A model generated the notes under the pieces. The model did no database searches. It was not told the DNA's origin and saw nothing but the letters and a program-made list of their open reading frames with translations. Shown piece after piece: positions 26,310 through 59,000 of a stretch of DNA of 64,000 nt. The DNA is from a virus. The first letter of the stretch is position 1. Every line of letters starts with the position of its first letter. The position numbers were made by a program, and so were the translations under genes. Location: positions 32,001 to 96,000 of IMG/VR virus record IMGVR_UViG_3300032291_003679, one strand, 5' to 3'.

Positions 26310-26548
26310 TGCTTGTCTTCTGCTTCTTTTTTGGCCTGATTAATTATCCATGTTGTTTCTGCGTTCATATTGTCAAGCCACGGGTGTGATTTAGCGAAAT
26401 CCGCCACTTGTTTAGCGCCGTCTTCTGCAGAATAGTCAATGCCAATCTGTCTAAACAGGTCGTAGATGTCTTCACATTCAGGAATGTCAAGTGTTCTGAA
26501 TTTTATAAAGTCTGCATTTTCTTGCGAATTGTCTATATTCATTGTCAT
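26306..26548 (-). CDS. hypothetical protein
   Basis: ATGA coupling on both sides. Confidence 0.6.
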   Translation of the reverse strand: MTMNIDNSQENADFIKFRTLDIPECEDIYDLFRQIGIDYSAEDGAKQVADFAKSHPWLDNMNAETTWIINQAKKEAEDKQ

Positions 26549-29500
26549 ATCATTACCGCCACTGTTTTATCGCCCATCTGAATTCCGACTCTTGATAGGT
26601 CATTTGAAAATCCGTATAGATTTGCCATACCCGAGGTGAGGCCTCTATTTTTGTGTTCTTTAGAGACTTTTGCTTTACCAACATTGCGTCCACCAGCAAA
26701 CGACATAGACGCAACTGGCTTGGTGTTCTTCGCTTCAAACATGCTTGCCAGAATGTCTGACTGTGTTGACATCTTGTCAAAAAGCCCTTGTATTTTTCTG
26801 TCGCGAACCTTGAGGTATTGTTCGTGGGTAAAGACTTTGACCATGCCGTTTGTTCCAGCAACCATCCAGTAATCTTGCTTTTCTCCAGTTGCAAAATCAG
26901 TATTGCGAACTCTACGAGCTCCAGACACTGGTCCTTTTGTGAACTTCTTCGTGTTGCCTATCCTCTTTAGCTGCATTGAGCCGGTGTTGAACTTGTTCGA
27001 ATTAAGGTCACTCAGGGCTGCGCTAACTCGCTTTACGGATTCTTCATCAAGCGTAAAACCACCAGTTCCACCAGAATCTATAAACGCTGGACTGACATCT
27101 TCTCCACTCTCAAGAAGTTCCCAAAGTTTATTAAGGTTAGTTACTGCAATCTGGTCCTCTCCTAGTCCCATATCTGCAGCTTTGGTAAGGTTTTCTTCAG
27201 TATTTGGATAAACATCTACTACGTCAAGATAAACGGTTCCATCAGATACCCATCCACCGATTGTGGTTTTTTCAGCACCAGACTTAGGTTCCATAAAGGT
27301 CTTTGGTCCGTGGAAGTCCATCCAAGCCAAGAACGTGTCAACCAGTTCGTCTGATGGGTTTCCCTCGGCATCAAAGTCAGCCACTGCATCTACCTTCATG
27401 CCGTGCTTATTACGAGCAATCGCTATGCCTTCTTTGATGTCGTCCATTCGGTCGACCTCTACAGTGAAGCCACCCATAAACCCCTTTGTCAGAGTCGACT
27501 TAACCGCTGCAACGCGTTCTGGGTCTCTATTAAACGTGACTTTTATGTCGGCAGCTCGCATGCGCGCTTCAACAAAGTTGTACTTGATTACTTTTCCTGA
27601 AGAAAGACGATTTGAATTCTTCGAGGGAACAGGTCCAATGTTGTCTATTGCGTTGTCGTAAGTGTCTATTGTCGAACGGTAGGTTTTATTTTTTTGTATT
27701 TTAAGAATTTCTTCGTCGCTCATGTTGTCCAACAAAAGCATCTCGTTGCTTATGAAGTCTAGGAATCTAGAAAAATGCTCGCCTAAGTAGTCGCCACCCC
27801 TGCCGTCAATATGTCTGGACTCGTATAGTTCATTTGCATCATAAGTTCTGTTTTTTAGATACTGACGAACAACACCTGCATCTGACATTTCTGATTCTCT
27901 ATAGGCTCTCCCTACTTCTTTCCTAATTTCAGATATCGGCGGAATGCTTCTCTTGGCTCTAGCCCCAGAAGAAAGTTTTGCCGTTTGGCCCGTCATGGAG
28001 TCAAATTCTGTTTTAAATTCGTCAATATCGAGTGCTGCAAGCCTGTGATATGGCGGGTTTGTTTGTTTGTCTCGGTCGCTAAAGCTTGCGTTGATTAGTT
28101 TTACAAATTCTTTATCTTCATCGCTTTCAACACGCTTAAGCACCTCGGCGGGGAAAAATACAGATGGTGGCGTCATCATCATTGCTTCGGTCGGGCGACC
28201 AAGCAGAACTACTTCATCTTCGCCCAGACATCCAAAGCCGGTTAATGGATTTGAGAATATATTCTCGATAGGGACATACGCTTTAATAAGAATATTGTCG
28301 TCAAATAAATCTGGGTTGTCTACTTTTCCTGTCAACGATGTAGCGAAAGCCTGTGCCATGGAGCTGTTTGTTGTCCATGAAGAAAGAGGACGCATAGAAA
28401 CAGTATCTGCTTTTAGCTCTCCTCTAGGTACGCGCATTTCTGGAGTACCCTTCATGCCTCTCCATACCGCAACATGGGTAACGCCTTTTGTTTTGTAGTA
28501 ATGCTGTGTTGCTTCGTATATTGCAGACACCACAGAACGAACGGCTGCGCGTTGTTTTTCACTCAAAGACGGCGCGTCGTCGAATTCTAGGGCTGTCAAC
28601 TCTCCTCTTTCTTCAGGGTCAACTGCATCACCAAACCCGCTACCGGAACGAGGCAAGCCGCGAATGCCGCCATTCCATCCAACTGCTTCATCAAGTCCAA
28701 ACATTTCTCTTGCTTCGTGCTGTATAGCCAAAGCAACCGGGTTTGAGTTGTTCGCAGAAATAGCCCATGTATGAATGATGTCTGAAACTATCGCTGCCGC
28801 TGCTTCTCTTTCCCCCTCAGGGGTGTCGATATCAAAAAACGAAATACCTGAAGTGTATTCATATCTGTTCTTAAAATCTTCAGCAAAACCAGCAGAAGCT
28901 CGCAGCCTATTTATTAGAAAACCTTTAAATAGCTCTTTTGTTTCTTCGGAATCGATATTGGATTTATCAACAGTGATTATTCCCGCTTCAGCGATTTTTC
29001 GAAGGTATTCGTCAGTAAACCCGAGTTCCGACACAACCTTGACATAAGCTTTTCGCTGTTCCGGCGTTTGTTCGCTATCTGGAATTATTTTTCCATCTTT
29101 AATTACTGATTTTAGTAATTCAATCGGCTCACGCGGAGATAAGCCTAGTTTTGAAATTATGGCGTAACCATTTTTTCCAGTGGTAGGGTCAACCTCTCCT
29201 ATGGGGGAAAAAGCTACGACTAAGTCACTGCTTCCTCGTAGCTCTTCTCCACTCCGTATTCCTTTTGAGAATTCTTGAAGCATGTCACGTATGCGTAGGC
29301 CGAGCTCCATTTGTTTTTTAATGTCGTCTCCACCAACTTTAGTAAGGAGGTATGGAGTAAATATCGACTTCTCATCACCTATGTATATGTTGGTTAAGGC
29401 GTCCCACTCTGGACCAAAAAGTTCATCAAAAGAACGAGCTTCTAGTTGGTCAATCATTTCGTCAAAATAAAAACGACGTTGAATTATTTTGTCATGCTCT

Positions 29501-32500
29501 GTAACGGACACTAGCGACCCTGTAACTCTATCTACAGCAAATCTTCTAGCCTTTTTGCGTTCTTCATCTGTTTGAGCTTTATCTACTGCTTCAAAAACAG
29601 ACATTAACGCTTTAAAATTGCGAGCCGCCGAAAAAAACCGTCGCTGCAGTTGAGCGTCAGATATTCCAGAGCCTGTTATCTCGGCTTCAGAAAAAGCTTG
29701 TATAAATTCTCTTGGTTTAATTTTTGCTGTTTGAGAAAGGTTTAGGGAAATCATTCGTTTTGCAGCAGAACTTGCCTTGCGGTCCTCCATTGGGGCAAAC
29801 ATACTGACGCCAAAACCATGAATTTTATTTGAAGATTTTGCCCCTAGCTCTTTAAGTATTGGGTCTTCAGGAATTTGGGCAACGTCATTTTTTAGTTCAT
29901 CGCTAAGGTTGTATTCTCCCGGAACAGGGAGGGACTCACGTAATTGCTCTGATGGTTCTGAAGCGAAGGAGACCAAGGACTCTGGGCGCTCTGGGGCCTC
30001 GAAGGTGTAGTCGGGTTTGCGTTTCGACGGCTCTTCCTGTTCTGAAGATTCGTCCCCAGCCCCAACCAATTGACGAAGCGCTCTAGAAATACGACCGCGG
30101 CGCTTTTCTCTTCCTGGCTTTGCCTCCGCGCCAGAGGACAACGACATGCTGATTGATGGGCGGCCATCGGGACGCGCTTCCCACGGAAGGTTGTCTGGGT
30201 TAACCCCAGCTAGTGCGTAAATATCACGGCGAAGCTTGGGGCTCAGTATGTTTTTTGCCAAGTCCTTGTTTGGGTGCATGATTGCAACAAAAGCTTCAGC
30301 GATTGCTTCACGCTTGTTTACATTTCCATAAGATGTTGCAAGGAGAGCTTTGTCTGGGTGCGTCTTAAACATCTCGCCAGCATCACGGCCGGTTAGGTCA
30401 ATGAACTGAGAGTAAATTTCAATTGCTTCGTTATCAGTATCGGGATTTGCGTACTCTTCAGCTACGTCTAGGGCTGCACGGTACATAGGGTCGTCGAGCT
30501 TGCCACTTCCATAATACGTTTTTGACCCCCCAGAACTATTCGTTTCCAGGTCACGTATTGCTCTGTAGTGAAGCCAGTGGCCGTACTCGTGAATCAACGT
30601 CCCATGGAGCGAGCGGTCGATATGCGCCTCTCTGAGTCCTGGTTTCCGATTTGGGTCAAGCTCTAGTGGATACTTGGCCCCTACGTTGTCGTACGATTCT
30701 CTGTCGATAAGTGCGCGTGGCGTTAGGCCGACAAAACCAAACTCGCGAGATGCGAGTCCACTAACAAATGGAGTTTTTTCCATGCCACGCTGCTGGCGAA
30801 GAAGCTCCATTCTTTCCTTTACGTCAGGACGCCCCTCGTACTCGTTCATTGCATCTCTTGTAAATACACCAACAAGTGGTGCGCCAAAATTTTCAAACAT
30901 CCACTTCATTTGTGGAGAAGAATCAAGCATGCTGCGAACCAGTTCTCGAGACGCCTCTAGCCCTTCTGGAGAGTAATCAATTCTCAAGGCATTTTCATGT
31001 CCATCGAGCTGGTCGTAGTACTGCTTTAGATATTTTCTGTACTTTCTGTCTTTGTTCCAGCCAGTTCCAGCCAGGTCATCAGCCCACATCTCAAAATGCT
31101 CTTCTTTACTGGAAGGTACAAGAGCAAGAGACATTTCCTCGGATGTCATTCCTGCTAGCCATTTTGTTGAAGACCTACGTACTTCTTTGCCCGAGGCGTC
31201 TGCTTGCCCGTAGCCCTTAACTCCACGCTTGCCTGGCTCTACTGGTGTGCGTTCTGACACTCTTCTCATTGGAATAAGCGGGCGTTGTCTTCCGGAGCTT
31301 AGGCTTTGATTGTCGTCATCTGAGATGCGGCCAGAAGAAAGACGGTCGCTTTTTCCTAATGCGTCATGCGCAAGGGCAAGCTCAACATCTTTGGCGTCGG
31401 CTTCATAGATTGACTTGCGTCCAGAAGATAATTTCCCGCTAGTAGATACTGCATCAAATTTCTTAACAACCGAATCAAAATCACCGGCATAGACGCGTAC
31501 CGCAACGCCCGTATCAGGGCTTGTCATATCAGTAATATCAAATACGCTTCTTGGTCTATTACGAAACGACTCTGATTCTCTTTGGTTTTGCTCCTGCTCG
31601 TCAAGCCTGCCTGTATGCAGCATCCGCTGAGCCGAGTACATCATATAGGTGAGATGCTTTACGGCTAGTTTTTCTTGCGGCGTCAATGGTGAGTCCGGAT
31701 GGTCAACGATAGAAAACATCGCTAAGTCATTGGCCCATTCTCCATGACGGTCAAAAGCTCTTCCGGTTCCGAGGTGTCCAAATAAGTCATGGGAAGCCTG
31801 AAGTGCTTTACCATCAAGCCCCATATTGAATTTAGACGGGTCGGTTATGCCACCGATGTACCCACGAAGATAAGTACTCGTGCTGGTGCTAATTCTGGAA
31901 CCTGGAACAAAAAGCTCCTCGTCGCCCATCAGTTCTCCAGCGCGACGTGAAAGCTCTCTAAGAAACTGGCTGTGTTTTTTCCATGCCTCAAGATATGGTG
32001 CGGGCAGTCTGTCTTGCGCTAAAGCCCGAAGACCGATGTCATCGCCTCTAATGACGAATCCTTTTGGAGCTACCATTTCCAACATTGGGAATCTAGCTCT
32101 TGCTTCGTCGTTCTCGTACTCTAAAACGGAACCGGAAGTTTCGTTCTTGTATATTTGTCTAGCAACAATATTCCCGTCAGTATCTTTCCATACTGAATCT
32201 TGAAAAACAAGCGTATCTTTCATTGCTTCATCAAGTATTGAAATAACGTCATCACGCTTAGGCAACTCGACGGTACGCCAGTCTCGTTTGTCCGGTATCT
32301 GTTCTGCCATTTGAGGTATCGGGTCAGCAGAAACAAACGGAATTCCGTCTGAAGAAATGTCAATCGAAATTGATTCAAGCAGTTGTTTTCCGGTTTCAGA
32401 AAACGCATCGTCTATTTCAACGTCAAGAAGCGTTTTGCCCGCAATTTCTCTGGTTAAACCTGGAACCTCTCTCTCAATAATTCTTTTTTGTTGGTCGGTT

Positions 32501-35500
32501 AGTGTTGTTTCGGTTGTTTCTTCTATTTTTTGTATTATTCGTTCAGCAACTTTTTTGCCGGTCAATACTTCCCTGTTGGAACCAGACTCGGCAGCTTCTT
32601 GCTGAGTTACTTCTATGGGTTCATTAAATGCTTCAACTACATTTGCGCCAGAAGAGAGTCTTGTACTTTCCCCTTCGTCGTCCAGATATATCTTATCGTC
32701 CGAGAATCTTTCATCATTTTTAAGGTCACCAATAGCGCGGTTAATGGCGTCAAGAAGAGACATTCCTTCTTCTTGATACTTGTCCCTTAAGCGCCCGAGC
32801 TCTTCTGATTCAAGCTTTTTTAAATCAGCATTAAATGTGCGAAGTTTGTACCGTGAACCATTTTCATCATATACAAGTTTAAATCTTTTATTTTTTTTCT
32901 CATTGAAAATTTCAATGTCTTTTATTAATTTTTGCAACGTGTTGCGCGTTGCGGTATACCCGTCTCTTCCTCGTGGCAGATATATAAGTAGGTTATAAAG
33001 TGAGTTATATGCAAGTTCGTCGTCATACACGTCGATGCTTACGTTGGCAGTCAGCTCACCATTTTTATAAATCGGGCTATAAGCATAGCCATGTTTTTCA
33101 ATAGATTCTTGTTTTATTTTTTCTCTGTAATTTTCGTCTTCTTCAAACAGGTTTTGAAGCCTGTTCCATTCTTTGACCATTTCTTCAAAGGTGTCGAACC
33201 GCTTCCCGAAAACGTCTTCGCTGGCTTGCTCAAAAGCTTCCTGGTTGAATCCGTTTTCATCACGGCTCCCAAGGCGTCTGCCGCCATACCCACTATATCC
33301 ATCATGGTATTCATAACGAGCGCGATATTCGCCCATTAGTCCTATGGGCCGTTCTTCTTGATTAAGAATATAATTACGGGCATTGCTTCTTATCTTGTAA
33401 CTAGTTTTTTCATTATCTGAGATGCGGCCAGAAGAGAGATAGTCTTTTATTTCTTGAGGTGTTCTTATTCTGTATTTTTGTCTTCCTCTTTTTTTTGATT
33501 CAAATCTTTCAAAAATTTCAGGAAATTCACCTATGAAGAAGTAGGCATTAGAAAGCGGTATCTCTAGTTCTTGAGACATTATTTTGATGTCTACTTCTCT
33601 GTCTGCATTGTCCTCTGTCCATTGCAGTGTTCTTTCAAATTCGTCTTCGCCGTAGGAAAATGATGCTCTTTTTAGTTTTTTCTTTTTTCGCGCTAAATCA
33701 ACCATTTCGAGTATTGCGTCATACTCTGCTTCTCCAATTCCTCGCGCTCGCGGCATTCGTGTTCCGCGGCGGTTATTTCTCGGAATGGGCCCATATGCTT
33801 CGTCGTAAAGACTGTCGTCGCTCGCAACTCTCCCTGCCATGGCCTCCGGTGAAGGTTTTTTTAGCGGTTCTTTTGTTGGCCTGATTGGTCTAAGACGTCT
33901 TTTGAAAATGTCACCTTGCTCTGTCTCTGTTTCCGCCGATGTTTCGGCATACTCTTGAGGTGTCAAAAAATCAGCTTTATCTTTTTCAAACTTTTCTACA
34001 TCTGTGTTAAATTTATCGTTGTCGGCTTTTAGTTTTGCGTCTCTTTTTTCTTTATCCAAGACGTCAGTAGACCATCTGTTTTCAATGGCTCTATCAATTA
34101 TCTTCTGCATAACCTGACTGGTTGCAAAAGCGTCAGCATCGGCGTTGTGGTGACCCTCACCTAATTCAACATCCAAATACTTAGTTATTGCAGCAAGACT
34201 GCTGGATGGTTTCTTGTTTCCATCTCTATCGGTTGTGTAGGGGCCCTCTGGGCTCTCTTCGCTCCACACGGGCAACGTCATTGCACTTATGTCTCTTGTG
34301 TCAAGATAACCAGAAGGACGCCAATCAATCCCGCTTTCACTCAATGCGTCTTCTAGAACGTTCTTGTCAAACGTGGCATTCTGGACGCCAATGATTGCAT
34401 TTGGCCCAATAAACTCAGCAACTTGCCTATGGGCTTCTGCCATTGGCATCTGCGTAGCGAGCCATTCGTTCGTTATTGGATTGCCGTCTGCGTCCTTAAG
34501 GTTTTTCAAGGACCATTCGCCGAGAGATTCTTCGGGGTTCATGTATAAATTTAAACGACCAATTTCTTTGCCGTTCTTTATTCTTGCTAGACCTATTTGT
34601 ATTGGCTTACCATTGCTTGACGCTTTGCCAAATTCGTCAAAAGTCAGACCAGTTGTTTCGTAGTCAAGGAAGACCATTTCGGTTTCGTTGTATCGCTCTT
34701 TAAATTCTTCCCACGAACTGACGCCATCAAACCTCTTCTCTGCGTCACCAAGGAAAGCACCAAGCGTTGGTTCGCGTGGATATCGTGGGGCCTTACCACT
34801 GCTCAGTGTTTGCCGTGAATCAGTTGCAGAATCCGCATTGTTGTAAAGTTCACGAACCTTCTCGCTAGACATAGCCAGATATGCGTTTTCAGTAAGAATT
34901 AGCTTTTCTGGGTCTATGTCCCTGAAACCCATGCTTTCCCAGTACTCCTTGGAGCCAGGGGTTGATTCAAGGCTTATGCCAGTATTGTCGTCATTTGCTA
35001 TTTTTAAAATGTCACGGAAAACAGAGCTTCCCAGGTTGTCTATCCCGGATTCTTTTCCATAGCTTGCCATATGGTGGATGAATAGATTGTCGTTATCCCC
35101 TCTTCCGCCTCTTCTAAAACGTGCAGCACCAACAATATTATTGTTTGAATCTCTAGCTACTACTAACGACCTGTCAACTGGGTTTGGTTCGCCAAAAAAA
35201 TCAGAATCACCAAATACTTTGTCCATCTGTATTTTTGCTTCAGCAAATCTTTGAGGAACTTTTCCATCTGGATACTTTTCTTTAGATAGCTTTTTGTATG
35301 AATCATCTGCTTCTTTTTGAAGATTGTAAAAAGATTCTCTGATTTTTTCTACATTGTCGTATATTGCGTCACTGTAAGCATCGACATCAAAATCGCCGTC
35401 ACTATTAAGGAATTCAGGGTCGTCTTCGTCGATTATTGTTTGCTCAACAATGCTGGTAGACACGTTTTCGTCGCGGGTGTTTTTGCCACTAGATAGGCTT

Positions 35501-36984
35501 CTTGAACTGTCGCGAGAAGGTAATGCTCCAGCAAGTTCTCTTAATGGTCTTGTATAGAAAAATTGAGCACCAGCATCATGAAACACTTTATCCGCAGTAG
35601 CAAAGTCAACCAATTCTTCTGCTGTTGCTTCTGTTTCAAACAGTCCAGTATCTTCATCTTTGCTATATAAGGAAGATATTTTTTTTCTATCTTCGTCGGA
35701 GAAAAGTTCTGGTGTTTTGGAAATGGTGTCATCAATTAGTTTTATAAACCCTTGTTTATCTTTTTCACCAGCCCATGAGAAGCCGTTTTTCGGCCAGTGA
35801 ACAGCGCCAGTTGAACCGCCACCAGATGCGCCCCATGTAATTATTGAGCGTACGTCAAGCTCTTTGTATATTTGCTCGTTTCGAGCATTGAATGTAGACC
35901 CTATGCCTTGTCCTTGGGCGCGGTTCGTGACGTAGAACGAATCGTGTGACACCATCCGAACGTCTTTGTCGTCCCCCGATATCTGCATAAATGTTCTGTA
36001 CGATGTTGCAAGAGCAGGTGTTCCATCGTCTCTGGAAACGAATCTTCTCTTGTCCTCGTCGTCGAACATGGCGATAAGCCTGTCGTTGTACTCTGGAAGT
36101 GGTTTAATTCTAAAACCAATCTCCAGCTTGGAAAGCAAGTCGCTTTCTTCTAGATTTCTTTCGTACAGTTGTAATTCGTCTTGTTCTGCAAGGTCTTTTT
36201 CAGAAACTTTATCTATTTTTAGAGACGTGGCCCATTCTGGTTGTGGGACTACTTCTATCAAGACCCTTTTACCAATATTTAGCTGCTTCCCATCATCGCC
36301 CGTAATAATTACGTCTTTGTCTAGCGTCATTTCGCCTTCAAATATTTTGGCGAATAAATCACGAACTCGTTGTTTTTCTAGTTTTCTTTCTTCATCGTCT
36401 TGAATTAACTGAACCGGCTTTGGTTCAGGCATCCCTGGTGGTCTCGGCGGTTTTGGTCTGGTGTCGAGCTCGTATACGTCTGCTTTTTGAAATTCTTCTG
36501 CTGAGAGCTCTTCAAAAAAATCATTTATCGATTGTTTTTTGTCTTCGCTTAATGGCGGTTGCGCATCAACTATCTCTTGATATTTTTTCCCAGAAGAAAG
36601 CGCTGAGCTTCGGTCACCCTGTTCGTCGCCGCTTGGTGAAAAAACACTTCCTTCAGAACGACGAGCAGGGCTCGCAGGTTTTCCGCCCTGGCCTTCAATT
36701 CCTACCCAGACCGGCTTTGTAGTGCCTTCGTCGGCCCAACCGTCACCGTCGACATCTCTACGGCTTCCTGTTGGGTTTCTGGTGCCGGGCTTGCCGCCTG
36801 TTGGCAGGTCAAAGCCCCTTCCGCCTCGTCCTCTGCGTCTTTCGCCAATGGTGGGCCTGTTTACTGCCCTGGAACCCAAATAGCGGCCTAGTCGTCCTAG
36901 GGCAGCCTTTTGTTCCGGGCTTGAATTTGCACCGCGACGGGATTCCTCAAAGGGAATGGAGAACTCTTGATTATCTGCAGACAT
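26545..36984 (-). CDS. giant polyvalent protein (3479 aa): GNAT x2, DEDDh exonuclease, HDxxGH domain, HExxH zincin, ADP-ribosyltransferase and unknown domains, joined by 11 LSSG linkers
   Basis: Motifs AQGQGIG; LESTPGSKEYWESMGF; LDYETTG/NATFD/HNADAD; HDLFGH..GE; HEYGH..EAIAE; WRG..LSSWT..EDEV. Confidence 0.85.
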   Translation of the reverse strand: MSADNQEFSIPFEESRRGANSSPEQKAALGRLGRYLGSRAVNRPTIGERRRGRGGRGFDLPTGGKPGTRNPTGSRRDVDGDGWADEGTTKPVWVGIEGQGGKPASPARRSEGSVFSPSGDEQGDRSSALSSGKKYQEIVDAQPPLSEDKKQSINDFFEELSAEEFQKADVYELDTRPKPPRPPGMPEPKPVQLIQDDEERKLEKQRVRDLFAKIFEGEMTLDKDVIITGDDGKQLNIGKRVLIEVVPQPEWATSLKIDKVSEKDLAEQDELQLYERNLEESDLLSKLEIGFRIKPLPEYNDRLIAMFDDEDKRRFVSRDDGTPALATSYRTFMQISGDDKDVRMVSHDSFYVTNRAQGQGIGSTFNARNEQIYKELDVRSIITWGASGGGSTGAVHWPKNGFSWAGEKDKQGFIKLIDDTISKTPELFSDEDRKKISSLYSKDEDTGLFETEATAEELVDFATADKVFHDAGAQFFYTRPLRELAGALPSRDSSRSLSSGKNTRDENVSTSIVEQTIIDEDDPEFLNSDGDFDVDAYSDAIYDNVEKIRESFYNLQKEADDSYKKLSKEKYPDGKVPQRFAEAKIQMDKVFGDSDFFGEPNPVDRSLVVARDSNNNIVGAARFRRGGRGDNDNLFIHHMASYGKESGIDNLGSSVFRDILKIANDDNTGISLESTPGSKEYWESMGFRDIDPEKLILTENAYLAMSSEKVRELYNNADSATDSRQTLSSGKAPRYPREPTLGAFLGDAEKRFDGVSSWEEFKERYNETEMVFLDYETTGLTFDEFGKASSNGKPIQIGLARIKNGKEIGRLNLYMNPEESLGEWSLKNLKDADGNPITNEWLATQMPMAEAHRQVAEFIGPNAIIGVQNATFDKNVLEDALSESGIDWRPSGYLDTRDISAMTLPVWSEESPEGPYTTDRDGNKKPSSSLAAITKYLDVELGEGHHNADADAFATSQVMQKIIDRAIENRWSTDVLDKEKRDAKLKADNDKFNTDVEKFEKDKADFLTPQEYAETSAETETEQGDIFKRRLRPIRPTKEPLKKPSPEAMAGRVASDDSLYDEAYGPIPRNNRRGTRMPRARGIGEAEYDAILEMVDLARKKKKLKRASFSYGEDEFERTLQWTEDNADREVDIKIMSQELEIPLSNAYFFIGEFPEIFERFESKKRGRQKYRIRTPQEIKDYLSSGRISDNEKTSYKIRSNARNYILNQEERPIGLMGEYRARYEYHDGYSGYGGRRLGSRDENGFNQEAFEQASEDVFGKRFDTFEEMVKEWNRLQNLFEEDENYREKIKQESIEKHGYAYSPIYKNGELTANVSIDVYDDELAYNSLYNLLIYLPRGRDGYTATRNTLQKLIKDIEIFNEKKNKRFKLVYDENGSRYKLRTFNADLKKLESEELGRLRDKYQEEGMSLLDAINRAIGDLKNDERFSDDKIYLDDEGESTRLSSGANVVEAFNEPIEVTQQEAAESGSNREVLTGKKVAERIIQKIEETTETTLTDQQKRIIEREVPGLTREIAGKTLLDVEIDDAFSETGKQLLESISIDISSDGIPFVSADPIPQMAEQIPDKRDWRTVELPKRDDVISILDEAMKDTLVFQDSVWKDTDGNIVARQIYKNETSGSVLEYENDEARARFPMLEMVAPKGFVIRGDDIGLRALAQDRLPAPYLEAWKKHSQFLRELSRRAGELMGDEELFVPGSRISTSTSTYLRGYIGGITDPSKFNMGLDGKALQASHDLFGHLGTGRAFDRHGEWANDLAMFSIVDHPDSPLTPQEKLAVKHLTYMMYSAQRMLHTGRLDEQEQNQRESESFRNRPRSVFDITDMTSPDTGVAVRVYAGDFDSVVKKFDAVSTSGKLSSGRKSIYEADAKDVELALAHDALGKSDRLSSGRISDDDNQSLSSGRQRPLIPMRRVSERTPVEPGKRGVKGYGQADASGKEVRRSSTKWLAGMTSEEMSLALVPSSKEEHFEMWADDLAGTGWNKDRKYRKYLKQYYDQLDGHENALRIDYSPEGLEASRELVRSMLDSSPQMKWMFENFGAPLVGVFTRDAMNEYEGRPDVKERMELLRQQRGMEKTPFVSGLASREFGFVGLTPRALIDRESYDNVGAKYPLELDPNRKPGLREAHIDRSLHGTLIHEYGHWLHYRAIRDLETNSSGGSKTYYGSGKLDDPMYRAALDVAEEYANPDTDNEAIEIYSQFIDLTGRDAGEMFKTHPDKALLATSYGNVNKREAIAEAFVAIMHPNKDLAKNILSPKLRRDIYALAGVNPDNLPWEARPDGRPSISMSLSSGAEAKPGREKRRGRISRALRQLVGAGDESSEQEEPSKRKPDYTFEAPERPESLVSFASEPSEQLRESLPVPGEYNLSDELKNDVAQIPEDPILKELGAKSSNKIHGFGVSMFAPMEDRKASSAAKRMISLNLSQTAKIKPREFIQAFSEAEITGSGISDAQLQRRFFSAARNFKALMSVFEAVDKAQTDEERKKARRFAVDRVTGSLVSVTEHDKIIQRRFYFDEMIDQLEARSFDELFGPEWDALTNIYIGDEKSIFTPYLLTKVGGDDIKKQMELGLRIRDMLQEFSKGIRSGEELRGSSDLVVAFSPIGEVDPTTGKNGYAIISKLGLSPREPIELLKSVIKDGKIIPDSEQTPEQRKAYVKVVSELGFTDEYLRKIAEAGIITVDKSNIDSEETKELFKGFLINRLRASAGFAEDFKNRYEYTSGISFFDIDTPEGEREAAAAIVSDIIHTWAISANNSNPVALAIQHEAREMFGLDEAVGWNGGIRGLPRSGSGFGDAVDPEERGELTALEFDDAPSLSEKQRAAVRSVVSAIYEATQHYYKTKGVTHVAVWRGMKGTPEMRVPRGELKADTVSMRPLSSWTTNSSMAQAFATSLTGKVDNPDLFDDNILIKAYVPIENIFSNPLTGFGCLGEDEVVLLGRPTEAMMMTPPSVFFPAEVLKRVESDEDKEFVKLINASFSDRDKQTNPPYHRLAALDIDEFKTEFDSMTGQTAKLSSGARAKRSIPPISEIRKEVGRAYRESEMSDAGVVRQYLKNRTYDANELYESRHIDGRGGDYLGEHFSRFLDFISNEMLLLDNMSDEEILKIQKNKTYRSTIDTYDNAIDNIGPVPSKNSNRLSSGKVIKYNFVEARMRAADIKVTFNRDPERVAAVKSTLTKGFMGGFTVEVDRMDDIKEGIAIARNKHGMKVDAVADFDAEGNPSDELVDTFLAWMDFHGPKTFMEPKSGAEKTTIGGWVSDGTVYLDVVDVYPNTEENLTKAADMGLGEDQIAVTNLNKLWELLESGEDVSPAFIDSGGTGGFTLDEESVKRVSAALSDLNSNKFNTGSMQLKRIGNTKKFTKGPVSGARRVRNTDFATGEKQDYWMVAGTNGMVKVFTHEQYLKVRDRKIQGLFDKMSTQSDILASMFEAKNTKPVASMSFAGGRNVGKAKVSKEHKNRGLTSGMANLYGFSNDLSRVGIQMGDKTVAVMI

Positions 36985-46977: not shown

Positions 46978-48342
46978 TCAGGAAGGTGCGCTGTCGAAGT
47001 CCAGCTTCACGAATGCCTCTGGGCGCTTCACGGCGAGAGCAAGGCGCTGCTCGGCGAGAATCACGATGGCATTACGGATGAAGAAGTCCGAGTGCTGTTC
47101 GCTGATACGGATGCTTGCCTGCTCGCGGTCGTACAACTGAGCGCCGGTACCGAAAGCACCAACAAGAGCTGTACCCTCTGTCATGGCAGGAGTGTCAACG
47201 ATTGGCATTCTCCAAACACGTGGCTCGCCACCCATTGCAACCGAAACTGCGATGAGGTATTGACCCTGCTCGTCCTTGGTGAGCTCGATGTCTTCCCAGT
47301 CATTCGGGTGTAGAACTACACCTGATGGCTCGTAGTAAGCAAGGAATGACAACGTTGCTGCACGACGGATTGCGTCAGCCTTGGTGTCTGCGACAGGTGC
47401 TGAAACACCGTCTGACCATGCGTACTCCTGAATGTTCGGTGTCTGAAGAACGCCGAGCAAGTTTTCGCCAACGCCATTTCCGTTAAGGATTTGGTTATCT
47501 TCGAGAAGACGAAGACCGTACATGAGTTCGTTGTCGATGATTGCACGCAACTGTGGCTCATCTGACAAAACGTTGCGGTGAGCTGCTTCCCAGTGAGCGA
47601 GTGTGCGCACTGGAGCCTGCTCGCCAACGAAGGCAAATGAAGACTGTGGCTTGATACCGAATGCTGTGTTGCCGGAGTTACGCTCTGCAACTGACGATGC
47701 ACTGTTTGTGCCATGGCCAGCCTGCAGGGTTGTGAAACCGAGCTGACGGAAGTATTCAATAACTGCAGCGTTTGTTGTGCGTGTTGGGAACAGGTCACGA
47801 ACGCGCTTTGTACGCATTGGAGGTGTCACCATTGGGTCACGCTGAACGTTGCCAAATGAACCAAGACGGCTGTCTGTAACAGCGGTTGTTGGCAATGCTG
47901 AGTACACATCCTTGACATTGAAGCCATTGTGTGAAGTCAACGAAGCAGCAACCTGCCAAGGAGCAGCCATGTTTGCGCCATTGCGGCCACCGTTGAGTGC
48001 CTTGAACTCTGCTGACTCAAGGAACATCTGACCAATGCTCTTGATTTCACGTGATGTAAGTTGGTTCATGTCTGCAGATGCAGCTGCGTATGCGGCAGCA
48101 GCAGATTCGCCTGCAGGCTGTGAACCCCAGCCATCAACTTGGTTCATGGTCTCAAGGTCGCCGAGAAGGCCCTTGATTTCCTTGATGTCGCGCATGTTCT
48201 TATCGAATGCGCTCTTTTGCTCTGGAGTAACGACTACTGTGCCGTTCTCAACTTTGAATGAATCAGCGATGGTCTTATTGTCTGCCATCTTCTGACGTAG
48301 AGCTCCTTGGAGCTCATCTATACGGGCTTTGTCTTCCGACAT
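46978..48342 (-). CDS. HK97-fold major capsid protein with N-terminal delta/scaffold region
   Basis: Coiled-coil N-terminus; VRTLAHW, EDNQILNGNG, VLHPNDW and AEQRLALAVKRPEAF motifs. Confidence 0.93.
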   Translation of the reverse strand: MSEDKARIDELQGALRQKMADNKTIADSFKVENGTVVVTPEQKSAFDKNMRDIKEIKGLLGDLETMNQVDGWGSQPAGESAAAAYAAASADMNQLTSREIKSIGQMFLESAEFKALNGGRNGANMAAPWQVAASLTSHNGFNVKDVYSALPTTAVTDSRLGSFGNVQRDPMVTPPMRTKRVRDLFPTRTTNAAVIEYFRQLGFTTLQAGHGTNSASSVAERNSGNTAFGIKPQSSFAFVGEQAPVRTLAHWEAAHRNVLSDEPQLRAIIDNELMYGLRLLEDNQILNGNGVGENLLGVLQTPNIQEYAWSDGVSAPVADTKADAIRRAATLSFLAYYEPSGVVLHPNDWEDIELTKDEQGQYLIAVSVAMGGEPRVWRMPIVDTPAMTEGTALVGAFGTGAQLYDREQASIRISEQHSDFFIRNAIVILAEQRLALAVKRPEAFVKLDFDSAPS

Positions 48343-48498: not shown

Positions 48499-49164
48499 TT
48501 ATTTCTTGCGAAGTTCTTCGGCTAGTGAAGTTTTTCTTCTAACTGTTTGCTTTGGCTTTTCCCGTAGCACCGTTCTGACAGCTCTTCGTGTCTCTTCTTC
48601 GCGTCGTTTCTGAATGTTTCTACGACCAAGGTCAGTAGAACCAGACCTGTTTGCATAATCAGACATATTCGTGCAAGGCATCCAAACTGTTCTTCCACCC
48701 TTGCTTACGCGTCTACTGATACCGATGCATCCAAGTTGACGTGACCTAAAGCGAGCTGACTCGGGGTCAAGAAAAACATCTGGGTCGTTATCTCTAACAA
48801 ACTCTGGACCTGCACTTTTCCCACTGCAACAGTCAAGAGATTTGCCACTAAAAGAAGGAGACGAAACAAGGCTTCCATCAGCAAGCGTTGCTATCCCTCT
48901 TATTGGGGCTTCTGTGAGATTTTCCCACTCATCGCGCTTGCGTTTCTTATTCTTGCCACGTGTTCTGCCTTTGCCTGATTTGCCATCAGGAACAACAGTT
49001 CTCCATTTGGATGTTTCCGCAATATTGGAGATTCTTTCAAGCTCATCCATGGAGGCACATGGCATCCAGTTGCCGTCTTTATCTTTGTGTGCTCCTGAAC
49101 AACCTATGTCTTTTGCCAAGCGCAGAGCGTCTGCCTTCTTGACAAGTTCTTTCTTATCGGCCAT
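48499..49164 (-). CDS. head-region protein with two GC.G...WMPC repeats
   Basis: IGCSGAH..WMPC and LGCIGI..WMPC. Confidence 0.7.
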   Translation of the reverse strand: MADKKELVKKADALRLAKDIGCSGAHKDKDGNWMPCASMDELERISNIAETSKWRTVVPDGKSGKGRTRGKNKKRKRDEWENLTEAPIRGIATLADGSLVSSPSFSGKSLDCCSGKSAGPEFVRDNDPDVFLDPESARFRSRQLGCIGISRRVSKGGRTVWMPCTNMSDYANRSGSTDLGRRNIQKRREEETRRAVRTVLREKPKQTVRRKTSLAEELRKK

Positions 49165-52498: not shown

Positions 52499-53003
52499 CT
52501 TTTTGCTCCTCTATTTCCCGTAGAAGACTCATTGCTTTCCATGCAAAATCTCGTTCTTCGGCTGTTTTAAACTTGTAAATACTTGTATCCAACTTTACCA
52601 TTCCATCGCAACATGACTTTGTAAGCATTTGCTGTTCAATGTTTTCGGAAATAAATGATTTAACTGCCCTTTTTGTTTTGTCTAGTTTTCTTTTGTTTTT
52701 TCCGAGTGATGAGTTTGTCGGCATTGACTCAAGCATCGAGTCTTTTATCGGCCTTGTTTTAGTTATGAAGGTCTCATACCATGCTCCAGAGGTTGAATCT
52801 TTGGGCGCATCCCATAAAAATCTTTGAAAAGGGGTTGTGCGAAGTTTTCTAAACCCTCTTGTAGTGCTGGATATCTGTATTATGTTGGCCCTGATAGATG
52901 TGCCATCGGGGCGCTCTATTACTGCATCTTTTTCTCCAGGACCAGCCTCAATGTCGTAGTAGACGCGGCTGTCATTGAGTAGACCCACGATTATTGACTT
53001 CAT
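52488..53003 (-). CDS. hypothetical head-region protein
   Basis: Coupled ORF. Confidence 0.65.
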   Translation of the reverse strand: MKSIIVGLLNDSRVYYDIEAGPGEKDAVIERPDGTSIRANIIQISSTTRGFRKLRTTPFQRFLWDAPKDSTSGAWYETFITKTRPIKDSMLESMPTNSSLGKNKRKLDKTKRAVKSFISENIEQQMLTKSCCDGMVKLDTSIYKFKTAEERDFAWKAMSLLREIEEQKDVN

Positions 53004-56000
53004 AGACGACCCCCGTAGGTAGAGGTGATTCTTGGCTTGCTTGACTTTTTCATGTCCTTAAGCATTTCTTTAGCCATTGCGATTATTTCGCTAGATATTG
53101 ATTTTGCAAGAACTGATTCGACAGACTCTCCCTTTCCTGCCGTTTTAGAATGAGAGCGTGGGTCTTCTATGTTAAATCCACGCGGATGAGCAAATTTCAC
53201 GTTATTGAATCCGCGCTCTGAAAAGCTGTTTTTTATTTTTTGAGAAGCTCTATAATTTCTGAGCATCGCCATGCTTTCACTATTCATCATCTGACCGCCA
53301 CCAATAGAGTAGAAGTACTCAATTTCTTCTGGGGAAAATCCAGCGGCGCGCAATCTTTCGGCAATTGTTTTTGTGTTAACGATGTCGCTAATGTCTTCTT
53401 TTTCTGCTTCTTGTTCTATTTTTTTGAAAGGAACGTTTACTTGCTCAATGTCTGCCATGTCGAACCCACCAAGTATCTGGGCTTCAAATGGCTCACGAGA
53501 TGAACCTTCTGGAAGATTGGAATCAAAAGAGTTAGCCAGTTTTCCTTTTTTACCACGAGTAGCGTTGATGTTAGAAAAATCATTATTCAAAGACGCTGAA
53601 AGAAGGTTCATAAAAGCCTCCTGGCGCGTCTTTTCCCCATTTACACCGTCAGCGTTGAGAATGGCATCGGCCACGTCTTCACGATTGCGTGAATTAAGCC
53701 TCACTGGCCTGTGTGCAGTGCTAAGTGAATTTCCTCGACCGTAAGCAACTCGTTCCGAAACTCCCGGGCGAAGAACTATCTCCATGTCCCCAAGAGCGGT
53801 GAGTCCGTCACCCACGACATCTTGGTCGCCAATTTCAAACACAGCATCTGGCCTTAGATTCCCGGAGCCGTCTTTCATAACATCTTTTCGTTTGCTGTCA
53901 ATGTGTGATTTATGAATCAAATACCCGCTCACTGGTAGCTGGTCTGGTGCCACAGAATCCGGTATTCCGATACGCGCAAGGTATTCACGAACATAGTTCT
54001 CTGCAGATAACCCGACAGTGTCTCCGGATGGAGCCATGTCTGACTCCATGTCTCTTGTCTTTAATGTCGCCTGCGAGCGCCTAATCTTCGCCAGTCTTCC
54101 CATGTTGGCTCTTCCGCTAGACAGGGAGTTGCTTCTCTCTATGTCTGCAGCACGAATAATTTCGTCAAGTTGTCGTTCGCGCTCGCTAGAGATAGCGCTT
54201 GTTCTTCTTGTTTCAACCAAGCTTTGACGAACTTTTAGCGTTTGCGAGTATTCTGCATCATTTCTAAGACCAACGGAGCCAAGCTGTATAAAGTCACCTT
54301 CACTGTATTTTTCGTCAATGAGTCTTGGGCCGTTTTCAATTAAAAAAGCTTCGATAGCATCAATTTCTTCATTAGAAATATCTTCAATTCCCTGTGCTCC
54401 TGGAAGTCTCCCTTCTACCCAGTCATTCTCCGCCCCCAGCTTCGCCACCTTGATTCCCCACACATCTTGGAAAACCTTTCCGAGCGTCAGCCCTTCAACA
54501 ATGTCTGTTTGAACTTCATTTATGTTTAGTGGCATTTGAAGTTCTTCTGGCAGCGAGCGATTGGCTACAATCAGCGCCCCCCATCTGTGATGGCCATCAA
54601 GGATGTATCCATCTTTGGTAGCAAGAATTGGCTGCATAAACCACTCTTTGTTCATTTCGTCGAGGAATAGCTTTTTAAACTCTTCTGCTGATACCCCAGG
54701 ATTAGCTTTTCGCACTGCTTCTGCTTTAGCAACTGCAACTTCTTGCATTGTTTGCGCCGTGCCGTCGACCTTGCTTGCAACCAACTGCTGTTGTGATGGG
54801 GCTGCCAGGCCAGGGGCAACCTGCTTGCGCCTTACCGCAGGGCCATTATCGGGGTCTTCAACCTTTATCATCTTATTAAGCCAATTAATAAAAGGTGTTT
54901 CTAAGTTTACTTCGACATCATTCCAGTTTGTATTTGCGTATAGCCACTGTTTTGCTTCATCAGAAAGACTTTCGTACGATTCCTCTCTGTGTTGTGCTGC
55001 TGTCTTTTCGCCAAGCTCATTTCCAATAGAATGTTTTTTTGCTATAAGCTTGTACAGCATTTTTGGCGTATCTTCATCAGAAAGTGGCTCTTTACCTTTT
55101 TGTGCACGCTCTAAATTTTCTTTTGCAATATCTTTATCAAGGTCGTCCGCAAATTCGACTTCTAGTTTTCTGTTTCTTTCAATTTTTCCTAATGGTTCAA
55201 ATTTTCCTGCAGCACGCCCGGCAACAAGGGCGCGGACTGCAGCAGTGTCGTGGCCCTTTGTTCTTCCGTTTGTTTGAGGCATTTTTTCTCTGTCGATGCC
55301 TATATGTCCAGAACACATAAGATTTTTTGTTGGGTCATAAAGGGCGCACAGGTCTGCTTGGTAGCTCCCCACGTAATCTTTTTCCATTTTTTTGATAGTT
55401 GCAGGGTCGTCAAAATCAAAATCTCTATTTTCATTCATGTATTTTGATTTGTATTGCTCCCACTTCCAGTGGCCATTTTTTATATGGTCTTTAGCAATGT
55501 TTTTTACTTCATCTTCAAAAACTTTTTGTGCCTGTTCCGTTAGGCGAATGTCTTGCTCTTTTACTTCAACGTGATGACCAAGCATCATCATTGCAATAGC
55601 TGTTGGAACATCGTCTACTTCGTAAAGGTTTGGGTGTTTTTCACTTATTGAGAGTCGTGCTGACCGCCGCGCCAACCCGCCAAACATTTGGTTAATCTCG
55701 TCCTGGGTCATGTCGTCTATGTTTTTCCCATCTTCAATAACTTTATTGAAGATGTCTAACGCTTTTGTGGCGACTTCTTTTTCCTGGTTTCTACGAATTT
55801 TCAAGTTTTCTTGAGAATCTATAATTCTCCCCGAAGAAAGAGACCGCGATGCTCTTTGTTGGGGTGAAATGGAAGCCAATCTTTCCGCGCGACGTGATGT
55901 TCTTAGGTCTTCATCAGATGCGCTAGAAAAAGGGGAACGTATTCCAGCCCCAGATGAAAGACGCTCTATATCTTCATCTGTTGCTCTTACTCTGACTCTT

Positions 56001-59000
56001 CTGTCAAACCCTTCGTGCATTCTGTAGGCGGTCTCAGAAGCCCTTACTATTAAAAGCTCTTCTGGGGTCTCCGCAATTAGCTTTGCCACAGCTGGATGGA
56101 TATCTCCACGAGAAATGCTTCCGTCGCCTCTTCCGCCACCTAGTGCATCTTTTACGTTTCTTACGGTCGAGGACATGGAGGTGTTTCTTGAATTTGTTCT
56201 TTCTGGTCTTGTAGCAGGCTTGCCTAGAGTGTCTCCACTGGAAAGTGTGGTTCTTCCGCTCGAAAGATGCGGTGGAACTTCATCAAAACCTTCACCAAAT
56301 GAGCCACCAGCATCTATTATTTCATCAACCGAAACGCGGCTTGCGGTCACCGTCGCGTCGTCATAGTCGCTTCTAGGTCCAGGGAAGGTATCTCCAGAAG
56401 CGCGACGCTCAGTTACATACTTGTCGACCATCGCTTGTATTTTTTTGCCGTGGCTCTGCGCCCAGATTGCATCTGTTTTGTTCTTTGAAAGATTTTCTGC
56501 CATTGAGTCAACAACTTGAACAGTATCTTTTTGGTAAGAAATTTCAGCTCTTATCGTTCCGTCAGCGTCTCGTCCAATGATTCTTATCTTCCCAGGAGGG
56601 GCAACGAATTTCTGCTCGGTATCTCCGCCTGTAGTTGGAAACAATCCACGGTCGCCTTCGCGAACGGAAAGAATGACGCGTCGAGGCGTTCTTCCAGTTT
56701 TGGGGTCTTTTGTCCCTCGCGCTGGCATGTCTGTTTTTACGGTTCTGCTGGTAATTACTCGGCCGGAAACAAACTGTTCTAGGTCAATCTCTCTGCCTTC
56801 AACCTTGCCCTTAAGTTTGGATGGGTCAAAATCAATAATTGCTTCTATGTCAAATGGGTCAGCAACGGAAGTTTTATCTATCGCCTCCATGGTTGGTATC
56901 AGCAGTTTTTCTACTTGCTGAACAACGTCGCCTTCTGCGGAGGACATTGGGTCAATTTCTAGACCCAAGCGCTTGAGGCGTGCATTTCTCTTATTTATTG
57001 CGCGTCCAGCACGTGTCTGAATAACTGGGTCAAGCATTTTGCCTACGTCAGATTCAGAAACATCGCCCAACTCTTTCATGGCCTTTTTCTGCTCTGCGTT
57101 AGCTTTTACTCTTCTTCTTTCGCGTGCGCCATGGTCGGCTGCATCTTTAGCGTTCTTAAATTTTTTCTTCGGCTTGGGTGGTGGACTGATTATGTCAGTT
57201 ATTTTTTTGTCTAATTCTTTTTTGATTTGAGCTTTTGTTCTCTTGTCGCCAGAAGATTTAAGATTTTCAATGTATTGGTCACGAATGACTTCTATCTCGT
57301 CAGCAAGTTTTCTAAATTCGTCAGATGCTGGGTCGAGCGTAGAAAGACGCACTTCTTCATCTACAAGTTTCTGTACTATTTTCTTTTCGGGCATCGCCTT
57401 GATGCGCTCACGAAGGTCGTCTAGGTCAGCTTTGCGGGCGATTTCTGCCATTTCGCCCGGGTCTAGAAGACCTTCGCTTTCCCGAATAGAACGAACTGTT
57501 TCGTCAAATCTTTTCTTTTCTCCACTAGCGCCGACGCCGAATTTTTTACGCCAAATCTTGCTGGCTTCATCATATTTTTTGCTATGAAAATCGAGCTCTC
57601 TTTGGGCATCTCTAATTGCTTCGGATTTCGCTCTCTCCATAAAAATTCGTTCATCGTCAGCAAGTGACTCATCTATTTCGAATTCTTTATAACTTTCAAG
57701 TCTTCTAGAAGCGTCGTCTCTTTGTGAAGCTATTATTGCTGCCTCTGAGAACATGTCATCTTCTGCGAGTTCGGCAAAACTTGTTTTAAATTCTGCCAAC
57801 TCTGCTCTTAGCTCTGATGCGAGTCGAACATCCCTATCCTCAAGAGTTTCTTCAATTACGTCATCTGGCATATCTTCTGGAACAATTGTGTCGTCTGGAA
57901 TGCGAAAGACATCATCGAGCGATTCTAGGTCTGCCGTATCGTCGCTTTCAGCGCGAGCTCTTGAGGATTTAGAGAAAGATAATCCGTCCATCCATTCGAG
58001 AGCAGCGTCGACGTCTTCGCCGTAGATTATTCCACGTTCACGAAGTGCCCATATCTCAGCAGCGGCTTCCAGTGCCCACACTTCCGAGCCTTCGGTGTAT
58101 ACGTCTCTTGGATACGACCCAGCAAGTGGAGCAATTTTCTTAAGTCTCTCCATTGCGCTGTCTAGCGCTTCAAGGTTAATTGAGTCCGCAACGTCGGTCA
58201 TAATTGACATAATGTCGGAGCCGCTTAATGCATAAATTGAATCGACGTTACGAGAACCAACGACTACCCCATCCTTGATGATAGGAACACGTATGAAGCC
58301 CATCTCGTCTATCTCGTCTTGAATTTTTTCTATGAACACCTGCGCTTGCTTGTGGTGCGCTATTTCGTGAATCATAATGTGGCTAGAAAAGCCGTAAACT
58401 CCATCTAGCAGGCCTGCCATGCCTCTTGCCGAATAGTCGGCGTTGACCAAAAAGTCAGCTACAGCAAGACGACCTTCAGCTTCGCTTCTTGCTCCAACTG
58501 CAGAAATTGCGAGCCTTTCGTTTGGAAGCATGTCTGGCAACATTGTTTCTTGATTAGCAAGAATCATCCCCATGTTGACATGAATCTGGGTGCGAAGTTC
58601 TCCAGGAGTCTTCCCCATCACAGGATTTCCATCCCTATCAAGAACGGGGGTTCCGTCAGGCTTTAGTCGTGGACTAATTGACGGCGCATCCCTGTATACG
58701 GATGTTCCTGCTTCATCTCCTGAATCGAATCTGTAAACTATCCGCCCAATGCCACGCATGCTTTCTGGGTCTTTTACAAATTGGTCTATAAGTGATTCAA
58801 ACAAAGCTCTTTGTGTGTACTTGTACCTGTCAAAGTCAGACTTAAGAAGTCTGCTCTTTTCTTCGTTTGAAAGACCGCGCCATCCGGGAATGCTTTCTAG
58901 TCTTACTTCACAAAATCTTTCTATTTCTGAATCAAGTAGTAAAGCTGCGCCTTCACCAGAAGCATTGAGGACCTCTATGTCCCAGCCAGCTCTCCCACCG

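Follow-up and report, generated by a model that had tools for sequence, protein, structure and literature searches.

Why should a single phage gene encode a chain of several thousand residues in which the same four-residue peptide recurs between units of different make-up? We addressed this question for a stretch of 64,000 nucleotides (hereafter the window; positions 32,001 to 96,000 of IMG/VR virus record IMGVR_UViG_3300032291_003679) with a gene for a protein of 3479 amino acids (aa), P0001, that is punctuated by the tetrapeptide LSSG. A sequence-only reading of the window had suggested that this protein carries roughly one enzyme per LSSG-bounded unit. Our analysis indicates that the gene probably encodes a polyvalent effector polyprotein that would be cut at LSSG and delivered from the capsid. 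As we envisage it, some dozen modules that fold independently would stand behind a conserved leader of ~130 residues, connected to each other through [R/S/K]-LSSG-[A/K/R], and LSSG would be the cutting site for a phage-encoded protease that releases the chain as separate proteins. These would comprise one or two GNAT-type acetyltransferases, a DEDDh 3'-5' exonuclease, an M34-like zinc endopeptidase, an R-S-E ADP-ribosyltransferase (ART), a His/Asp-motif enzyme of an uncharacterised family, and several modules without assigned function. The polyprotein would be loaded into the capsid and delivered with the DNA, and its early targets in the infected cell would be proteins and nucleic acids of the host.

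A strict junction peptide in a giant phage protein

The 3479-aa protein is the product of a single, real open reading frame (ORF; Table 1), and the borders of its units lie where they had been placed from the sequence alone. LSSG starts at aa 129, 497, 727, 1183, 1443, 1852, 1882, 1895, 2282, 3004, and 3127, which amounts to 11 copies compared to 0.13 expected from composition. Throughout the phage genome, the peptide is almost confined to four large proteins, i.e., the 3479-aa protein (11 copies), a 2391-aa giant (5), a 3020-aa protease fusion (4), and the tape measure (2). A word-indexed search retrieved 36 giant relatives with lengths of 2147-4703 aa, all of them metagenomic, while a peptide-pattern search with the whole protein found no close relatives in IMG/VR. 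LSSG is the commonest 4-mer in 31 of these 37 proteins (36 relatives and the query), and 34 relatives (35 of the 37 proteins including the query) contain 4-13 copies each at identities down to 35%. The logo built from 314 sites in 35 related proteins reads [R/S/K]-L-S-S-G-[A/K/R] with an S/T/D/E-rich stretch before it; single-residue variants are rare, and the flanks of the sites are disordered and S/T/D/E-rich.

At the level of DNA, the sites vary freely: each of the six Leu codons, either family of Ser codons, and each of the four Gly codons can be found among the 22 LSSG sites of the genome. It is hence the peptide that is under selection and not the DNA, and this variation rules out LSSG as a DNA-level recombination signal. 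In the literature, we found no report combining LSSG, phage, and cleavage.

The joints bound exchangeable cassettes

After splitting the 37 proteins at each LSSG, we grouped the resulting pieces into unit families by BLASTP clustering. These families are of near-constant length, and their members are present, absent, duplicated, or reordered between relatives. As an example, the 409-aa unit F5 lies ahead of the zincin in P0001 and behind the ART unit in P0006-P0008, and the 123-aa unit F12 is flanked by other partners in P0017 and P0027. Relatives also carry a cassette without counterpart in P0001, a VIP2-type ART (Pfam ADPrib_exo_Tox, 1.6e-11). Wherever a joint is missing, two modules travel as a single unit. 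Empty spacers of 6-39 aa between two LSSGs are common among the relatives, and the two mini-spacers that had been noticed behind unit F5 of P0001 are indeed there, 30 and 13 aa long and each closed by LSSG.

Two AlphaFold2 (AF2) models consist of folded domains separated by stretches with a low predicted local distance difference test score (pLDDT) that coincide with the joints. Across unit clusters, alignments, and these models, no conserved domain straddles a linker. LSSG thus bounds folding and evolutionary units, and the straddling domains that would have spoken against a unit-by-unit cargo list were not encountered. The expectation of one enzyme per unit is accurate only as an approximation because there are units with two modules and others that are empty spacers, and no activity can be assigned to at least three of them.

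Two further observations were made among the relatives. The VIP2/C3-type ART cassette spans ~229 aa in P0004, P0005, P0007, and P0012, where it is found at or adjoining the position of the second GNAT unit of P0001. Separately, P0013, P0017, P0019, and P0027 contain long pentapeptide-repeat tracts (Pfam Pentapeptide, 1.3e-100) that are joined to the ART unit with no LSSG between them and could possibly be DNA mimics.

Predicted enzymatic cargo of the cassettes

A fold or family could be assigned to four modules. The DEDDh 3'-5' exonuclease was confirmed with all of its Exo motifs: the core matches Pfam RNase_T (PF00929; 4.6e-10, 40.7 bits with a cut-off of 24) and phrog_192 (5e-23), and its five catalytic residues (Exo I D774-x-E776, Exo II D873, and Exo III H946-x4-D951) are near-invariant in 29 aligned units. 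However, the unit of aa 731-1186 that had been listed as one exonuclease really contains two modules, the exonuclease of ~280 aa and an extra module of ~176 aa. The latter occurs in only 5 relatives and forms a separate LSSG-bounded unit in P0004, where another unit is inserted between it and the exonuclease.

The zincin proposed from an HEYGH motif is likewise supported, since the HExxH residues and downstream glutamates (H2132, E2133, H2136, E2226, and E2230) are invariant in 25 sequences and the modelled fold resembles the catalytic domain of anthrax lethal factor and the Pro-Pro endopeptidases (PPEP; family M34). Unlike these enzymes, it is a ~390-aa cassette in a phage polyprotein, and it shows no significant sequence match to any solved or Pfam family. 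Profile searches among PDB sequences with F2, F3, F13, F5, F0, and the F5 core (see below) returned nothing significant, with lethal factor as the best match (E 0.12).

For aa 2286-3007 (unit F2), an R-S-E ART had been proposed, and this assignment holds for the last ~300 aa only, while the first ~420 aa are variable and without assignment. The ART-like domain is modelled at a pLDDT of about 90 and displays R2842, S2868-S2869, and E2922-x-E2924 in this order, all invariant in 23 sequences. In fold matches, ExoS, cholera toxin A1, LT, ART2.2, PARP10, and tankyrase all map to these same residues. No Pfam ART family (PF03496 and others) matched unit F2 at E up to 1, and none matched among its 23 relatives or anywhere in the genome. 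The domain differs from the known R-S-E clade (TreX, ExoS, cholera toxin/LT, and C3/VIP2) in having no Pfam ART match, and also in the conserved helical segment ahead of it (SD.IHTWAIS.N..N). A specific likeness to T4 Alt/Mod or VIP2 was not borne out: the VIP2-type cassette of the relatives is a different unit that is absent from P0001, and a comparison of the two by hhalign was not significant. In the last unit, F6, the C-terminal subdomain (aa ~3348-3479, window positions 26548-26943) appears to have a GNAT-like fold.

Searches with whole models were less informative. Foldseek runs of both multi-domain models against the PDB returned mostly noise with no E below 0.001, and an ESM Atlas fold search of model B gave template modelling scores of at most 0.37. 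In BFVD, matches down to E 8.5e-12 were uncharacterised phage proteins including a "DEDDh domain containing" polyvalent protein and several named as ARTs, which is consistent with the cargo labels without being specific to them. The name of a top BFVD match, "phage head morphogenesis domain", is only a lead since neither PF03496 nor PF04233 has a match in the phage's own genome.

Two GNAT acetyltransferases had been listed ahead of the exonuclease. The first (unit F3) is a candidate with an R-x-x-G-x-G-type motif near aa 355-361 that scores 13.9 bits (E 0.067) for Acetyltransf_1 in hmmscan and 16 bits in a genome search (profile positions 17-116); neither score reaches the cut-off of 20.7, though the unit is the only PF00583 candidate in the genome. 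Among its relatives, 3 of 21 match at E 0.039 or worse, with best E-values of 0.0062 (Acetyltransf_7) and 0.039 (Acetyltransf_1), and its Atlas lead score is 0.91. The second (unit F13) is probably a GNAT, with 18.1 bits for Acetyltransf_10 at a cut-off of 23.6. This family matches 5 of 11 scanned units (7 of F13 and 4 of F16, the latter being the source of ART matches), with a best value of 1.5e-4 and all of them under the cut-off. No significant similarity between F3 and F13 was detected by hhalign.

Unit F5 had been labelled as an HDLFGH metallo-domain. Its His/Asp/Glu motif is indeed conserved, with H1732, D1733, H1737, D1745, R1746, H1747, and E1749 invariant, while the metallo label and a role as metal-dependent hydrolase are guesses from this motif that no known fold or family match backs. 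An exhaustive profile search collected 130 representative clusters, the distant ones sharing only a core of ~35 residues (FRAVHD.FGH..TGRGFDRHGEE). Scans of 58 distant proteins with this core revealed no common Pfam or NCBIfam family, and neither F5 nor its core had a significant match among PDB sequences. An Atlas feature search produced only a weak Peptidase_M49 lead (0.87), and a word-indexed homologue search with the F5 profile found none. An apparent similarity of F0 and F5 in hhalign could be traced to exonuclease segments fused within two alignment rows and is an artefact. For the remaining units, structure searches gave no convincing fold match to the AF2 model of F14 and only generic helical matches to F12.

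As a side observation, a 221-aa protein encoded next to the capsid gene (window positions 48499-49164, minus strand) contains DUF3721 (3e-12), which was also detected in 3 of the 58 distant proteins with the F5 core motif.

Related giants and sister codes

The other LSSG proteins are similarly composite. The 3020-aa fusion begins with an N-terminal S78 head protease that is followed by a scaffold-like region, ArdC-N, MPTase-PolyVal, and a UvrD-like helicase. The 2391-aa giant has no Pfam match, and its ParB-like motif is of the kind present in DdrB-type ParB domains from polyvalent proteins. A link between the 3479-aa protein and the fusion is provided by the leader, which is basic, highly conserved in 25 relatives, and characterised by the motifs KAA..RLGR..GSR..(D/N)RP.IG and a DxDGDGWADEG loop. 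The only other match of the leader profile in the genome lies at aa 554-587 of the protease fusion (E 9e-7), directly before the first LSSG of that protein and in the segment behind its protease/scaffold part. In the tape measure, 17 of 21 sequences (our phage and 20 relatives at 57-65% identity to it) retain the LSSG at aa 36, and 12 have a second site in a low-complexity region that cannot be aligned. Across 80 related loci, real LSSG sites occur only in homologues of the giants.

Other lineages use other peptides in the same way. Their protease-fused giants contain GMRS, LGSR, GFAS, (L/F)ASRG, GFSS, or GLSS, and another clade uses I[ST]G[RKA]M or VSGKM; the loci compared were protease fusions (L114-L177) and giants adjoining capsid genes (L050-L083). 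Most of these sister codes share a hydrophobic-x-Ser/Gly core. A complete sister phage of 160 kb (G008, loci L189-L196) has no homologue of the 3479-aa protein, which is therefore an accessory gene. The protease fusion of G008 is 3567 aa long with 11 LSSG sites; it looks as if cargo had moved between carrier proteins.

Could these joints remain uncut? Within one multi-enzyme chain, LSSG might be a conserved hinge that lends flexibility, or a tag to which, for example, a chaperone, a packaging adaptor, or a modifying enzyme docks. Cleavage at LSSG is a prediction, and the N4 virion RNA polymerase, ArdC, and TraC1 are polyvalent proteins that are delivered uncut (PMC5512222). However, a hinge would not need a strict tetrapeptide, and a protease site is a better fit to the empty units of 13-30 aa between two LSSGs, to the conserved site 36 residues from the N-terminus of the tape measure, and to the replacement of the whole code by lineage. 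We thus consider an uncut chain quite unlikely. Overall, a protease site agrees best with the strict peptide at each border, the empty units, the constraint at the protein level, and the lineage-specific replacement.

Genomic setting and proposed delivery

The source record is a complete virus genome of 158,021 bp with direct terminal repeats and 47% G+C. From its gene content, we assign it to an uncultured tailed phage of Actinobacteria because it encodes a WhiB-like regulator, primase/helicase, ribonucleotide reductase, ThyX, and rhamnose genes together with an HK97-type capsid protein, portal, large terminase, and tape measure. The nearest cultured matches of the capsid protein are from Brevibacterium and Gordonia phages (46% identity), and we counted 353 related capsid genes in IMG/VR. 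Genes of the head region are ordered as portal, protease fusion, and, further along, capsid protein. The 3479-aa gene is located downstream of whiB, the primase/helicase gene, and two small genes, with ends that overlap or nearly abut.

Loading into the capsid and delivery are suggested by the leader motif that is common to the 3479-aa protein and the head-protease fusion, and by the location of the sister giants in the head module. Precedents for such delivery are Alt and the internal proteins of T4 and the Dar proteins of P1. In the cultured but distant Gordonia phage Hanem (OP867024.1, locus L178), separate genes for an RNA ligase and a VIP2-like ART lie in the interval from portal to capsid protease; they are an unfused counterpart of the polyprotein cargo.

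Several points weigh against a cut and capsid-delivered polyprotein. The whole case is built on sequence and models, no Pfam ART family matches the ART-like domain, and both GNAT units score under the Pfam cut-offs. The gene lies outside the head module, with a plus-strand cluster between it and the head genes, and its location in the whiB/primase run means that it may be an early product that is never packaged. Regarding the protease, lineages that differ in their code still have S78 domains of 65-94% identity, and the capsid protein keeps Q-L-T-S-R-E at three loci where the giants use I[ST]G.M, so that the code does not visibly track the head protease. Finally, the tape measure contains conserved LSSG sites, and a protease confined to the capsid would not be expected to meet it.

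The location of the gene raises the possibility of an intracellular polyprotein that is made with the replication genes and either cut in the cell or working as one chain, in the manner of an RNA-virus polyprotein and never becoming virion cargo. Such a product would suit the overlapping or abutting run headed by whiB and primase/helicase outside the head module, and also the accessory nature of a protein that complete G008 lacks as a whole. It would be harder to reconcile with a leader motif common only to the head-protease fusion, with giants in the head module that bear the same joint code, with ART and polyvalent proteins being typically virion-delivered effectors (PMC5512222), and with the VIP2-like ART gene of Hanem between portal and capsid genes. 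On balance, we regard purely intracellular action as unlikely.

Candidate proteases for the junction code

If LSSG is a cutting site, the S78 head protease is the reader towards which we lean, with chances somewhat short of even. Head proteases are known to process internal head proteins. S78 shares one polypeptide with cargo that contains LSSG, it is present in every lineage tested, and the S78-scaffold protein of the I[ST]G.M lineage itself contains a site of the local code. A predicted complex of the S78 domain with linker residues 1866-1905 scored 0.00, which speaks neither for nor against binding.

The Q-L-[ST]-S-R-E motif of the capsid protein is itself LSS-like and sits about where the delta domain of an HK97-type capsid protein is expected to be removed. 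Its co-variation with the linker code, which we had considered, is weakened by the three loci that keep the site despite I[ST]G.M giants.

A phage zinc protease might cut LSSG in place of the head protease, perhaps after ejection into the new host, where it would process all ejected proteins including the tape measure. We view this as possible though rather doubtful, and the same holds for the zincins of the other two giants as readers of LSSG. Each of the three giants holds a zincin that could take this role, namely MPTase-PolyVal in the fusion, the HEIAH zincin in the 2391-aa giant, and the M34-like unit in the 3479-aa protein. Cutting by one of them would account for the conserved sites of the tape measure and for a capsid-protein site that stays constant where the linker code differs, and the M34-like fold belongs to sequence-specific endopeptidases. 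MPTase-PolyVal is encoded by G008, which uses LSSG, and by G005, which uses LGSR. Three complete genomes with I[ST]G.M have a near-identical S78 and lack both MPTase-PolyVal and the M34-like unit. In addition, autoprocessing by MPTase domains has been proposed previously (PMC5512222). On the other hand, the I[ST]G.M lineage uses a code of this type without M34-like unit or MPTase-PolyVal, including the site in its S78-scaffold protein, and a single tetrapeptide specificity for three unrelated zincins would be unparsimonious. The M34-like unit in particular is not the sole reader: complete G008 lacks it and keeps 11 LSSG sites in its protease fusion, which rules out the zincin inside the 3479-aa protein as the necessary LSSG protease.

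Table 1. Positions of the cassettes of the 3479-aa protein and of other features discussed in the text (window coordinates unless stated otherwise).
Feature	Position	Strand	Basis or remark
P0001, 3479-aa polyvalent polyprotein	26545..36984	minus	single ORF, stop codon included
Leader, aa 1-132, unit family F4, closed by first LSSG	36589..36984	minus	25 aligned leaders
Unit F3, candidate GNAT, aa 133-500 (core aa 297-402)	35485..36588	minus	Pfam Acetyltransf_1 below cut-off
Unit F13, probable GNAT, aa 501-730	34795..35484	minus	Acetyltransf_10 E 0.0026
Unit F1, DEDDh 3'-5' exonuclease core, aa 731-~1010 (~280 aa)	33955..34794	minus	Pfam RNase_T, phrog_192
Extra module, aa ~1011-1186	33427..33954	minus	fused to exonuclease without joint
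Unit F14, alpha/beta, aa 1187-1446	32647..33426	minus	7 members, pLDDT 60-90
Unit F5 (HDLFGH unit), aa 1447-1855	31420..32646	minus	conserved motif, widespread family
Two empty mini-units, aa 1856-1898	31291..31419	minus	LSSG positions; 6-39-aa spacers in relatives
Unit F0, zincin metallopeptidase, aa 1899-2285	30130..31290	minus	HEYGH and downstream Glu
Unit F2, variable N-terminal part, aa 2286-2702	28879..30129	minus	poorly conserved, 23-sequence alignment
Unit F2, ART-like domain, aa 2703-3007	27964..28878	minus	R2842; S2868-S2869; E2922-x-E2924
Unit F12, helical bundle, aa 3008-3130	27595..27963	minus	8 members, other positions in relatives
Unit F6, two subdomains, aa 3131-3479	26548..27594	minus	C-terminal subdomain with apparent GNAT-like fold
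HK97-type major capsid protein	46978..48342	minus	conserved Q-L-[ST]-S-R-E at aa ~94-99
2391-aa head-module giant, 5 LSSG	53000..60175	minus	HEIAH zincin motif and ParB-like DGHHRW motif
3020-aa protease fusion, C-terminal part, 4 LSSG	61877..64000	minus	runs off the window to 70939 (genome 93877-102939, locus L001)
Tape measure, LSSG at aa 36 and aa 607	genome 119802-124607 (locus L002, outside the window)		sequence

Comparison with known systems

Polyvalent proteins of phages and conjugative elements have been described as single polypeptides with 2-15 unrelated conflict-type domains, and their release by embedded peptidases has been proposed by analogy to viral polyproteins (Iyer, Burroughs, Anand, de Souza, and Aravind 2017; PMC5512222). 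The 3479-aa protein with at least four assignable domains and about six others belongs to this published class, for which proteolytic release has thus already been hypothesised. It shares with these proteins the combination of many conflict-type domains (ART, GNAT, and zincin peptidase) in one phage polypeptide as well as neighbours with ArdC-N, MPTase-PolyVal, ParB-like, and helicase domains. In contrast, PMC5512222 describes no recurring junction peptide, whereas we observe a strict genome-wide code and exchangeable cassettes, and it places assemblin-like peptidases at C-termini while S78 is N-terminal here. The word "linker" does not appear in that article, and "exonuclease" only in its list of references. 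We did not find the strict genome-wide junction code, the exchange of cassettes at this code, a DEDDh exonuclease as core cassette, or the His/Asp-motif family in the polyvalent-protein and other literature searched.

The large Dar proteins DarB and DdrB of phage P1 are multi-enzyme proteins packed into the head, and DdrB, which is proteolytically processed, has ParB-like and MPTase domains (PMC5512222) like those of the 2391-aa and 3020-aa proteins. Dar proteins differ in their domain sets and have no repeated junction code; moreover, packaging has been demonstrated for P1, while for our phage it is suggested by the genomic evidence above.

The internal proteins IPI-III and Alt of phage T4 carry a capsid-targeting peptide that is removed by the gp21 prohead protease. 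Under the working model of a cut and delivered polyprotein, both systems would have in common that the N-terminus carries an address peptide, that a protease reads a short motif, and that an ADP-ribosyltransferase is delivered together with the DNA. The T4 proteins are, however, encoded by separate genes with one L/I-x-E site each and cut by a T4-type protease, while the 3479-aa protein has around a dozen modules in one chain with 11 sites of a different motif.

Implications for phage biology

Beyond this single gene, we lean slightly towards the view that a large group of uncultured freshwater-type actinophages builds giant proteins from exchangeable effector cassettes via lineage-specific junction codes and then cuts them, with the tape measure being processed as well. 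What our analysis adds to the concept of polyvalent proteins is a tested cargo list, a code recognised as a constraint at the protein level, and the exclusion of the protein's own zincin as a necessary reader. If the joints are cut, one gene would give rise to about ten separate proteins, and each joint would mark exact domain borders. This would provide a clean list of effector cassettes that can be expressed singly, a pair of protease and site, and an instance of natural module shuffling. We see candidates for new activities in counter-defence or host takeover in the exonuclease, the peptidase with its resemblance to lethal factor, the divergent ART, and the His/Asp-motif family. If our interpretation of the junction code is true, these phages would employ a strategy like the polyproteins of RNA viruses for delivered weaponry, and their giants would constitute a catalogue of new anti-host enzymes that includes a DEDDh exonuclease missing from the listed domains of polyvalent proteins and a His/Asp-motif family with over 100 sequence clusters.

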